DNA from: Malacoraja senta
Taxonomy: Eukaryota
Assembly (NCBI GenBank): GCA_038087875.1
Contig: CM075989.1
Coordinates: 5,146,001-5,210,000 of the forward strand
Length of the DNA: 64,000 nucleotides
Direction: 5' to 3'
The notes beneath the pieces are model-generated. The model was given only the letters and a program-made list of their open reading frames with translations. It had not been told where the DNA came from and did no database searches. The stretch's first letter is position 1; every line of letters begins with the position of its first letter. Shown one piece after another: positions 15,064 through 31,687 of the stretch. A program made the translations under genes and the position numbers.

Positions 15064-15751
15064 CAAGAGCGGAACTCGCTATCAAAACATGGAGGGGACG
15101 GGACACAATTTTTTGGCAGCCACGAGCGTATGCGCACACTCACACACACGCGCGCGCGAGGCTTCGGAGGCTCAATCCAGCGCTAAATGCAGCTCAACAA
15201 TGCCTGTCTCACCGGGTTAACTACAGCCCTGTCTGGACTGATGGGACACCAGCGCTGTTTCTCCGCGCTGGCCATATTTCCCGCAAGTCCAGGAAGGGTT
15301 GTAAGCTCACCTGGCGGGACAGGCAGAGTTAGCTGGGTTTAGCGCTGCTTCTCTGCCCTGGCCCGTCTGATTCCCGACCAAAGATCCTATAGCGGAGGAT
15401 GTTTGCTCCCGACCTCTCCGGCCACCCGTGGGAGGGGGGGGGCACTCGGGAGGGGACAGGACAACGCCGGAGACCCGGCCGGGATCGATCCTGCCTGCGG
15501 ATGAGGCGCAAGTCTGTGCCACGTCTCCCTCCTCCAATCATCGCGCTGAATCATGTCCTGCCCCCATTGCCTGCTGACCGACGTCTCTCTCGTCCAATCA
15601 GCGCCCTCGATCATCAGTCCCACCCCCACTGTGTCGCGGAAAGCGGGGATTTTAAAATCCGGATCACAAAAACTTGGGGGGGGATGTCCCCCACCTCTCA
15701 AAACATGGAGGGGACGTGTCCCCTCTGGCCCCCCCGGGTTTTCCGCCCCTG
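15064..15751. mobile_element. hAT-type non-autonomous element
   Basis: 8-bp TSD atgtcagc (15056-15063, 15752-15759); imperfect TIRs CAAGAGCGGAAC / TTTCCGCCCCTG; subterminal direct repeat tcaaaacatggaggggacg at both ends. Confidence 0.8.
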
Positions 15752-27658: not shown

Positions 27659-27967
27659 GTGCCTATACCACTATGGTGACTGCCTCCACTACCACCCAAC
27701 CTGTTCCACGGACCAACCACTCTCTTTTTAAAAATAACTTGCCCCTCTCACCTTAAAGATATTCGCTCTAGTCTTTGTCATTTTTATCCTGAGCAAAAAG
27801 GTTCTGATTGTCTACCTTATCTGTAGCTCTCATCATTCTATAAGAGTGGCACAGCTGGTAGAACCAAAGATTATATAGCGGAGCAAGATGCGCCACTCAG
27901 CGAAAAAAGCGTAGTATGACATGGGTGATTGTTGACGCCATTTTACCGGACTGCCTCGACTACCGTC

Positions 27968-28077
27968 ATGGCGTCTACATCTAAATCTTCATCTCACTGC
28001 TCTGCTATCAATTGCTCTAATCGTCAATGTAGACGACCCGACCTGTCATTCTTTAGGTTCCCCAATAAAAAGGAAAG
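27968..28077 (+). pseudogene. THAP zinc-finger first coding exon of a transposase (orphan exon 1)
   Basis: GTCATGG start, MASTSKSSSHCSAINCSNRQCRRPDLSFFRFPNKKE(R), then AG|GTGAGA donor. C-x4-C...FFRFP is the THAP N-terminal signature. Too short for the ORF track; no downstream exons recognised. Confidence 0.85.
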
Positions 28078-28451
28078 GTGAGAAAATATTATTATTTTCT
28101 GTCGATATTATTCTGAACTGAAAATGTTATTTTCTGTCTCCCATCAACGGCCATTCATTGGGAAACTAGGTTTGTCGGTACATTAGAAAGTTATTAGAAT
28201 TATGTTTTAATAGATCTTTACTTACCACAATAATAAAGTCAATGATTTTAACACTTCTGCACGTTTTGGGTTTTGTTCTTGTAAGGCAGGGGTCTCCAAA
28301 ATATGGCCCGCGGGACACATTAGGCCCACCAGGAGATTTTCCGAGCTCAGATTCGAGTCCGGGAACGCGGCGGCTGTTACTGGTTATGTCCCTCGAATTG
28401 TCGAGACATCACAAACAAAGATCACAAGCCCGCCGTGAAGAAGGGTGCAAT

Positions 28452-28481
28452 CAAAGATTATAGAACGCTCTATAATCTTTG
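28452..28481. mobile_element. 30-bp P-type TIR remnant (footprint 1)
   Basis: ggtgcaat|CAAAGATTATAGAACGCTCTATAATCTTTG|ggtgcaat; 8-bp TSD. Confidence 0.85.
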
Positions 28482-28524
28482 GGTGCAATGGTGGGGCGGG
28501 GGGTTCGGCGGCGGCGGTCGGAAT

Positions 28525-28560
28525 CAAAGATACTAGAGGAGCTCTGCTCTATAATCTTCG
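28525..28560. mobile_element. 36-bp P-type TIR remnant (footprint 2)
   Basis: gtcggaat|CAAAGATACTAGAGGAGCTCTGCTCTATAATCTTCG|gtcggaat; 8-bp TSD; first 18 nt identical to the right TIR of the enclosing element. Confidence 0.85.
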
Positions 28561-28599
28561 GTCGGAATGGGACGGCTGCTCATTATAACGTGCTCTCGT

Positions 28600-28848
28600 T
28601 CCACTCTCCCTCTCCCCCTTTTCCCTCTCCCCCTTCTCCCTCTCCCCCTTCTCCCTCTCCCCATTCTCCCTCTCCCACCTTCTCCCCCTCCCTCTCCCCC
28701 TTCTCCCTCTCCCCTCCCTCTTCCCCCTCCCTCTTCCCCTTCTCCCCCTCCCTCTCCCCCTTCTCCCTCTCCCCTCTCTTTTTCCCCTTCTCCTTCTTTC
28801 CCCTTCTCTCTTTCCCCTTCTCCCTCTCTCTCTCTCCTCTTCTCTCGA

Positions 28849-28882
<34 letters not shown>

Positions 28883-28955
28883 CCTTTTCTCCCTCCCTCC
28901 CTTCCCTCTCTCCCTCCCTTCCCTCTCTCCCTCCCTTCCCTCACTCCCTCCCTTA
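28600..28955. repeat. CT-rich low-complexity polypyrimidine tract
   Basis: Seen directly. Confidence 0.95.
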
Positions 28956-29022
28956 CCTCTGCGTGAGAGTTGGCAGCCCTGCTATGCCTTAGGTCCAAAA
29001 GAGGATAGAAACACACACACAA

Positions 29023-29053
<31 letters not shown>

Positions 29054-31687
29054 GATTGAAAGAAAAAGGTTGCTAAACAAATTAGAGGAAATCTGAAGAA
29101 AGAAACTAGAGAAATATTTCAAGTCAAGTCACTTTTATTTATATAGCACATTTAAAAAACAACTCTCGCACAACGCCACGCGCTAGGCGTACGCCGTCAA
29201 GACGCTGCGTACGACATCGAGACGCTGCGTACGCCCGTCGAGACGCTGCGTATGCCCTCAATGCGCCTGCGGGCCGACAGACCGTTGGCGCGCGGGATTT
29301 TCGGACAGTGCAAGATTTTTCAAGCGACCACGTTTGGTCGTGCTAGACGCATGCAATCGCATGCTGGTGGGACAGGCCCTTAACTTGCCTCTCACACACA
29401 GGCACACACAAACACACATTCATATACATATATATATAAGTTAAATTTAATTTTGTGCACAGTGTGTGTTAAAGCAATACAAGGGAAGCTGCACAATACA
29501 ATGCAAGGGAAACTACGCAAAGGTGGCGGCTGAGGAGGAAAGATGGGAGGGAAATGGGGGAACAGGGGGTAAACATTTACAATAAAATTAACTAAAATAA
29601 GTGAGGTGATAGATGCGCTATATCAAACACTGTTCCCTACAACACTGATTACGTCAAGGATGATAGAGCGGAGTGCACAGCGGGAGGCATACCGGAAGTT
29701 GCGTTTTGCATTAAAAAATGGCAGCCGTGACGTTCCGTTGCGTACTACACGTCAGTCCATTGGATTTTGGAGGAGTGGCCTATTTTGCTCCTCTAGTATC
29801 TTTGGGTAGAACTGCTGCCTCACAGCACTAGAGACCCAAGTTCGATTCTGGCCTTGTGTACTGTTTGTCTGGAGTTTGCACGTTGTCCTTGCGACCACTT
29901 GGGTTTCCTCCGGGTGCTCCGGTTTCCTCCCACATCCAAAAGACATGTTGGTTTGTAGGATAATTGACCTCTGAAAATTGCCTCTATGATGTAGGGAGTA
30001 GATGAGAAAGTGGGATAACATAGAACTAGTGTGATCAATGGTTAGTATGGACCTAGCAGGCCGAAGAGCCTGTTCCATGCTGTATCTCTAAACAAAACTA
30101 AAGAGTTCAGTTGACCTTTAGATTTTACATTCAATTCCTTCATATGGTACATTAAAAAAAATAGCATTGCTCTGTTTAATTTTGAACTCCTGATCTTTTA
30201 ACAAGTTCACATCCTTCAAGTTAAGACTTGTATTCAAAGTATGAAGTCGTGCATGCTAAGTCCTTTTACTTAAAAAAATCAATTGGACAAAGGAGCTTTC
30301 TTCACTTCCCACACCTTTCTTTGATATGACAAAGGTGAATGAAGCAATGAGCTAAAGGTGACCTTGAATCTTTCACAGGTTGCATTAGAAAGTTTGCGTT
30401 TTTAATTCTGATTATTTAGAGTGTGTTTAAGGTAGTCAGATTTGGCCGTGTAGAATGGGCAAGAGTTGGACTCTTGAGCAAAACACAAAGTGCTGGAAGA
30501 ACTCAGAGGGCCAGGCTGCACCTGCGGAGGGAATGGTCAGACAATGTTTGGGGTCGGTGACCATTTGTCAGAATGATTGTAGAAGAGGGGAGAAAGCTGG
30601 CAATCTAACCCCCCCCCCTTCCCCCCCACTCACCTGTATCCACCTATCACTTGTCAGGTTTTGTCTTGCCCTCACCTCTTTCTTCCAGCTTTCTCCCCTC
30701 TGTTGCAGTCAGCCTGATGAAGTGTCCCAACCTGAAATGTCATCTATCCATTCCCGCCACTGATTTTGACTGACCCCCCTTGACCCCGGTCCTTTGTGCT
30801 TTGTACAAGAGTGACTTGTAGTGTTGGACCATTGGAAGTGATGTGAACCAGTGGGGAGGTCAGTACCTGTGATGGCCCGGGCAGTGTCTCCCACTATCTG
30901 ATGCCACCTTCGTTCCTGGGCGTTTGAGTTGCTGAGCCAGGCCGTGATGTGACCAGTCAATATCCTCTCCAAGCAACACACCGATAGAGGTTCAAGACAG
31001 GTTCAAGCCACAGAAGGATGTGGAGGCCAAGTCAATGGATATTTGTAAGGTAGAGATAGGTAGATTCTTGATTAATACGGGTATCAGGGGTTATGGGGAG
31101 AAGGCAGGAGAATGGGTTTAAGAGGGAGAGATAGATCAGCCGTGATTGAATGGCGGAGTAGACCTAATTCTGCTCCTATCTTTTATGAACTTGTGAAGAC
31201 AGAATTCGGCAACATAGCAAATCTCCTCAATCATCTGAGGAAAGTCCTGCCATTAACAGCATATTATAGACATAAAGAAGCTTAATCTGATTTTAACTGC
31301 CTCTTAACTGTCAACCGGTCCTAACCAGTCAGAGAAATTTCCTTTCTTCCATCCATCCTCCTCCTCCATTTCCTTCGACACTTAACCAACTTGTTTTTCT
31401 AGTTCCCAGTTGTGCTGAAGGATCATAGACCGGAAACATTATCTGTTTCTCTTCCCACAGATGTTGTCTGACCTTTGCTGAGTGTTTATAGTGGTTTCTG
31501 TTTGAAATGGCAGGTTAATATTTCGGGTGAGGAACCGGATCCAAATGGACTAATGGAGGCTGAATAAGAATATTAACAGACATGAACATCTCGGGGACAT
31601 TCACCAGGATCACAGACACTGAATAAATGCAAGCTGGTTTTGACATAGACGAGAAAAGGTTTAATAGGGTTAATTTCCTAATATTTT

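Follow-up and report, generated by a model that had tools for sequence, protein, structure and literature searches.

Two short inserts carried by a P element of the window (the whole 64,000-nucleotide stretch of DNA analysed here) are best explained as donor-site scars of a vertebrate P transposase, whose inner cut would fall just before an inner AAGAT repeat. On sequence evidence we place the probability of this explanation as a whole at about 80%. The host element is an internally deleted, non-autonomous copy of 1,940 bp on the plus strand (27865..29804), flanked by an exact 8-bp duplication, GGTAGAAC, at 27857-27864 and 29805-29812. It displays the same CAAAGAT ends as the inserts, and both ends are common to the 7.5-kb transposase-bearing copies. 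The left end (27865..27889, plus strand) comprises a 20-nt outer segment followed by an inner AAGAT (27885-27889) that repeats tip bases 3-7, which would place the inner cut between 27884 and 27885. The right end (29782..29804, minus strand) is formed by an 18-nt outer segment (29787-29804) followed by an inner repeat altered to AAAAT. The predicted first transposase exon, containing the start of the THAP domain, occupies 27968..28077 (plus strand) with a putative splice at the GT donor at 28078. Both inserts are located behind this first THAP exon and would thus lie inside the first intron of the transposase gene; a location in the promoter was rejected for this reason. The host element itself interrupts a common repeat (window 27800-27864 and 29805-30070), which we take to resemble a tRNA-derived SINE of cartilaginous fish.

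Insert 1 (28452..28481) measures 30 bp and is made of two element-end arms joined tail to tail. Its 8-bp duplication, GGTGCAAT, is exact at 28444..28451 (plus strand) and 28482-28489, and the same 8 bp are present as a single copy in L110. Insert 2 (28525..28560) measures 36 bp and combines an 18-nt right-type arm with a 20-nt left-type arm through a 2-nt GC overlap. The exact duplication of insert 2, GTCGGAAT, lies at 28517..28524 (plus strand) and 28561-28568 and is single copy in L107 and L108. Both inserts open with CAAAGAT and close with the complement of this motif, with one substitution at position 28559 in insert 2, and a pairwise comparison revealed no difference between insert 2 and the right end of the host over the initial 18 nt of the insert. 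The sequence-only reading of this region had described two end-only inserts with their own 8-bp target-site duplications, the second carrying the exact right-end sequence, and in these respects, as in the tail-to-tail arrangement of the arms, it was accurate; the arm length of ~14-19 nt that it proposed was not, the arms of insert 2 being 18 and 20 nt long and sharing GC. Insert 1 is mostly 33 bp long in other non-autonomous copies and 37 bp in autonomous copies, and its 30-bp form was seen only in the window copy. The ancestral insert 1 was likely the 33-bp form, consisting of a 15-nt and a 20-nt arm sharing GC, and the window version is likely a shortened derivative from which 3 further bases are gone.

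Both inserts are inherited parts of the family, copied along with the element. A search with the host region produced 261 candidates, and the 40 that were scored all align across nearly the full length. All 19 of the other copies fetched contain both inserts, which rules out events at the window locus, and insert 2 is found in 139 exact copies genome-wide. A gap-pattern search identified two copies without insert 2 (L107 and L108) and two without insert 1 (L109, a fragment only, and L110). L110 is an older, more diverged copy that has neither insert, and its left end is of the type seen in the insert 1 arms. The presence of insert 1 alone in L107 and L108 and the absence of both inserts from L110 indicate that insert 1 came first and insert 2 second. 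Empty-site alleles, which had been expected among other copies, are thus provided by L107, L108 and L110, and clean empty paralogues exist within the window for five other scars. Contigs assembled from runs of four other organisms include some that span the inserts and some with single-contig joints that skip them, a weak hint that the insert-bearing and insert-free states both predate a species split.

End-only inserts occur by the hundreds in this genome, in which the family pattern picks out ~1,158 element ends. Patterns requiring G or C on both sides, which leave out both window inserts, recovered 136 loci of 18-26 bp, 340 of 27-34 bp, 55 of 35-38 bp and 128 of 39-69 bp, counts that take in copies spread within repeats, chiefly in the longest class. 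Reversed-pattern controls gave 4 loci in the shortest class and 0 in each of the others, so the end-only inserts are not due to chance. A non-random set of 166 loci was fetched, which took in most of the loci listed for two search patterns, nearly all of the listed 35-38 bp inserts and some short and long ones, and was collapsed into 130 events (one cluster wrongly joins three). The 8-bp duplication is exact in 92 of these 130 events and has at most one mismatch in 117, compared with 0.6% of shuffled pairs; the 13 events without a near-exact duplication were left out of the arm counts given below. The length distribution, for which a peak near 30-36 bp had been predicted, is peaked, with 56 of 69 events at 29-34 bp and a mode of 34 in a set whose search patterns exclude inserts below 22-26 bp. 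Scars and intact copies (24 copies with matching duplications) share a target bias for T at position 2 and A at position 7, at 70% and 73%, respectively. The joins are heterogeneous: their genome-wide lengths span 20 to 66 bp and templated additions occur, the longer inserts holding additions copied from element ends. Microhomologies (CTAG and AG, for example) are used at the short joins. These junction classes match those listed for the fly in Table 1 of PMC2895639. The near-exact duplications in 117 of 130 events, the empty alleles and the hundreds of end-only inserts make it very probable that the inserts are real P excision scars, as the description of fossil P excision footprints had implied. 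One search, covering the two window sites, found no full element at a scar site; L263, a candidate for a full element at a window site, was rejected on account of its unrelated end.

Scars are also found within scars (L240:155-295 and L023:1455-1595), and in L240 the outer insert encloses a 31-bp one that has a separate 8-bp duplication around it. Tandem copies of a scar together with its duplication are repeated twice in L114 (1455-1595) and four times, ~95 bp apart, in L138. A ~595-bp family with 18- and 20-nt ends (L245, L250, L253, L254 and L257) carries its own inherited 32-bp scar and probably gave rise to scars of the 36-bp type.

The putative cut position was located from the points at which the arms stop. 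Element ends consist of CAAAGAT, a spacer and AAGAT starting at position 19, 20 or 21, AAGAT being included in the search pattern that picked them. The inner repeat matches the tip over 5-7 bp at all 95 catalogued ends, with AAGAT again part of the selecting pattern. Among 234 arms, a sample enriched for 35-38 bp inserts, 80 stop at 18 and 21 at 20, and 4 enter the inner repeat. Divided by end type, 145 arms are of the 18/19 type (80 stopping at 18, 13 at 19 and 1 at 40) and 47 are of the 20 type (21 stopping at 20, 3 at 19 and 2 beyond), the remaining 42 being too short for assignment. Overlap joins are blind to n versus n-1 nt because the GC at the arm end is self-complementary, and only blunt joins discriminate between them. 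Blunt joins of two full arms are present at 11 loci genome-wide, 10 of them independent and 8 with exact duplications; nine are 18+18 and two are 18+20, and they include ends with GAAC in place of GAGC. Only 2 joins genome-wide, at lengths up to ~60 bp, run past into AAGAT. When the right-right joins of an unbiased set are written as a 17-nt arm plus its partner, the partner ends in G in 22 of 23, on C18 in one and in A or T in none; 17-nt blunt joins would be expected to show any base there, and the observed G fits pairing with an 18th base C. The CC-type 19-nt ends gave 3 matches, none a blunt join, and as neither these nor the listed loci of the sister subfamily described below provide a clean blunt full-arm join, the putative 19-nt tail is read from overlap joins. 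The sequence-only reading had assumed the same 17-nt stagger as in the fly. This part of it fails, as the arms extend to 18 or 20 nt and stop immediately ahead of the inner AAGAT; a fixed 17-nt stagger was rejected on the basis of these arm stops, the blunt joins and the presence of only 2 run-past joins. The data suggest that cleavage by the enzyme occurs 18 to 20 bases in from each tip.

In the proposed mechanism a family member would insert and duplicate 8 bp, and the transposase would later make its cuts at the tip on one strand and within the end on the opposite strand. These staggered cuts would leave 3' single-stranded tails on the chromosome, and end joining would then fuse the tails, mostly via pairing of the terminal GC. 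Such pairing would result in a full-length scar equal to tail a plus tail b minus 2 (34, 36, 36 or 37 bp). The inner cut would be placed directly before the inner AAGAT, independently of a fixed distance from the tip. It would also free a 5' AAGAT on the excised element that could re-pair with tip bases 3-7 of the transferred strand, and the loop between the paired strands would absorb the difference of 18 to 20 nt. In Drosophila the transferred strand loops out, doubles back and pairs with the 5' portion of the opposite strand, an arrangement required for transposition according to the review PMC7776569, which also notes that it is not known in what order and by what mechanism the P strands are cleaved. 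By analogy, re-pairing is, by a small margin, the favoured reason for the placement of the cut. The scars would have been fixed in succession within the predicted first intron of the transposase gene and then copied with the family.

A larger sister subfamily with CAAAGATCCT ends yielded 3,140 end matches with 19- and 20-nt spacers and consists mostly of ~390-bp MITEs (L282-L289 and L280). Its end-only joins amount to 2,449 strand matches, many of them probably spread in repeats. The rule a plus b minus 2 predicts 37 bp for 19+20 and 36 bp for 19+19; the 19+20 product was found at 15 of the 50 loci listed (of 60) at 37-46 bp and the 19+19 product at 8 of 12 loci at 34-36 bp. Twenty sister loci were fetched, about 17 of them independent, with 13 exact and 16 near-exact duplications. 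Run-past joins in this subfamily comprise six matches that form three pairs, and none of the 62 loci listed shows two full arms in a clean blunt join. The 36- and 37-bp joins need arms of at least 18 and 19 nt, respectively. Thus the sister subfamily shows that scar length tracks the spacer, in a manner equally compatible with tails of 19/20 and of 18/19 nt. Since scar length follows spacer length in both subfamilies, the inner cut likely follows the inner repeat, and tail length is probably set by this repeat and not by a fixed ruler.

A conserved inner protein-binding site that sets the cut would lead to the same scars. An enzyme with a single fixed cut distance is improbable, although it would leave equally real scars, with longer arms derived from brief sister-chromatid copying and an 18/20 wall that reflects GC joining. 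The GC overlap used in most full-length joins, the few arms that do run on and the gap repair with aborted synthesis reported in PMC2895639 as common after fly P excision are all in agreement with it. Copying, however, would give a length tail, whereas no more than 2 joins extend beyond the inner repeat; moreover, the 10 independent blunt joins stop exactly at 18 or 20 nt, GAAC ends included, and scar length follows spacer length in two subfamilies. It is highly unlikely that the 30-36-bp units are micro-MITEs transposing on their own. Identical 34-mers and 36-mers are indeed found at numerous unrelated sites, each of which has a separate duplication (6 such sites for the 36-mer of insert 2), and the 139 exact copies of insert 2 would suit such a unit, but the checked copies of insert 2 all occupy one site in the host element (19 of 19 loci). 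In addition, the junctions are heterogeneous, with templated additions and lengths of 20 to 66 bp, the recurring units are sums of existing element ends, such as the 18- and 20-nt ends of the 595-bp family, and the units have neither the inner repeat nor any subterminal sequence. Ordinary internal deletions by replication slippage or end-end recombination, with no transposase cut, have just as slender a chance: they would explain the microhomologies (CTAG, AG) at short joins, but the sharp upper wall, with only 2 joins between it and ~60 bp, the blunt joins, the templated additions and the intact duplicated outer ends fit the repair of a defined break.

Two scars separated by 75 bp, and additional ones close to the right end, have accumulated in the element lineage, far above the genome average of <1 per megabase for the subfamily of the host. 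An end-like subterminal stretch at 29655..29673 (plus strand) is the position of further footprints in other copies, and the window copy represents the empty allele of the 36-bp insert that L020 carries there. A nest of further end-derived inserts is located ~130-180 bp from the right end in L092, L093, L095, L102 and L104, and the right-end nest of full-length copies contains 41-46 bp and stacked forms that vary by lineage. An unrelated 688-bp repeat (window 15064-15751), which is flanked by an 8-bp duplication, ATGTCAGC, and whose inverted ends are imperfect, is presumably a hAT-type MITE. Its copies carry at least 5 different scars, two of which are stacked in L076 and L148. The window copy of this repeat contains a third footprint, of 27 bp (15379..15405), with sister-subfamily ends and a duplication that has 1 mismatch in the window and is exact in L076 and L148; for the scars of L022/L024, L137 and L148, this window copy represents the empty allele. 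Scar flanks are richer in GC (p 0.010) and CpG (p 0.042) than DNA 1-1.5 kb away (43 pairs). Local hopping into the interior of the element, which had been proposed for the clustered scars, is not supported as a needed cause, with 3 clear P-internal cases in 117 events (15 BLAST matches read) and scars present in a non-P repeat as well. A preference for GC-rich sites, intron tolerance and later amplification would account for the clusters without local hopping; hopping or selection may nevertheless have contributed.

The transposase, the THAP domain, the catalytic residues and the 8-bp duplication with its target bias identify the family, at the sequence level, as a member of the P superfamily. 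A PF21787 profile search of the genome returned 300 candidates, and all of the 150 scored lie above the cut-off. The transposase frames are situated between CAAAGAT ends, the same ends and inserts are present in 18 of the 20 transposase regions fetched (L103 and L105 being the exceptions), and L093, L101, L102 and L104 are complete ~7.5-kb elements with exact duplications. All three frames tested match PF12017, PF21787, PF21788 and PF21789 (P-type HTH, RNase H and GTP-binding insertion domains), and one of them matches the Drosophila transposase structure PDB 6p5a with an E of 2.5e-44; a P-family transposase behind the inserts, as suggested by their appearance, is thereby supported. The hAT superfamily, which also generates 8-bp duplications, is ruled out, as the three frames contain no hAT transposase domain and the P-type families were their sole matches. 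The catalytic triad D230, D303 and E531, read from an alignment against the residue list of PMC7776569, is identical to that of Drosophila, and sequence comparison shows 7 of 8 GTP-site residues to be identical, with K400 replaced by R. In the P superfamily both cleavage and strand transfer require GTP. Exon 2 of the full-length copies matches the THAP profile PF05485 (E 1.9e-07), and the first two THAP cysteines would be contributed by exon 1 through the predicted splice. A single strong RAG2 match assigns the host to the jawed vertebrates, in accordance with the vertebrate germ line that had been assumed.

Four copies are 98.8-99.8% identical across 1.8 kb, so the family is young. Transposase relatives named among the matches listed (120 of 180) come from molluscs, ticks and insects, together with one hake protein, and none of these 120 of 180 is named THAP9. 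In the hake protein, named O-GlcNAcase (P0095), one stretch shares 61% identity with part of the transposase, closer than every named invertebrate relative among the matches listed; this may reflect a related fish element fused to it during annotation, or horizontal transfer. Metagenomes provided 1 related locus, at 35% identity, whose element ends were not found. Among the public sequencing runs listed as containing the sequence, none was of RNA. Many transposase-bearing copies on small contigs (L087-L089 and L095-L100) share one common left flank and have no matching duplication, as if amplified within a larger repeat or tandem array.

The chances are even, in our estimate, that P transposases rely on an inner copy of the tip, and not on a 17-nt ruler, to position the inner cut, as recorded in hundreds to thousands of fossil scars with 18-, 19- or 20-nt tails, and that the near-identical full-length copies may represent a vertebrate P system that is still active, transposes fully and stands apart from the THAP9 lineage. 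With natural ends whose spacers vary by 1-2 nt and whose scar lengths vary to match, the cut rule is open to a direct test. The scars, which are too short for usual repeat annotation, form a large natural record of vertebrate germ-line end joining, and a young family with intact-looking frames offers a candidate vertebrate P transposase for study. Full-text searches, with most subscription papers and repeat-database entries outside their scope, found no report of fossil P scars in a vertebrate or of a P stagger other than 17 nt.

The family resembles Drosophila P (PDB 6P5A/6PE2) in its THAP, HTH, RNase H and GTP-binding domains and its catalytic D, D and E, and similarly in its 8-bp duplication, its CA...TG ends and its target bias, which is of the palindromic GT....AC type described for the fly consensus in PMC2577343. 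Its scars share with the fly P excisions described in PMC2895639 the long 3'-tail joins, overlaps of 1-3 nt, blunt joins and templated additions. In contrast, Drosophila P transposase leaves 17-nt tails at both ends (PMC7776569) and the fly junctions in Table 1 of PMC2895639 include no arm beyond 17 nt, whereas the tails here would be 18, 19 or 20 nt long, depending on the spacer that precedes the inner repeat. The end sequence also differs from that of Drosophila P, the inner repeat is exact, and the scars are germ-line-fixed by the hundreds and carried within the element itself. Zebrafish Pdre2, as presented in bioRxiv 10.1101/2024.03.22.586318, is likewise a vertebrate P-like element with an 8-bp duplication and deleted derivatives, but its end is a different 13 bp; the same preprint describes zebrafish THAP9 as excising without transposing and leaving larger deletions. 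P-superfamily MITEs such as BuT5 (PMC3698922) are short non-coding P partners with 8-bp duplications, and this genome has MITE families of this kind, of ~390 and ~595 bp. Unlike such P MITEs, the 20-66-bp inserts are heterogeneous and lack inner and subterminal sequence, and they are likely the products of MITEs leaving and not MITEs themselves.
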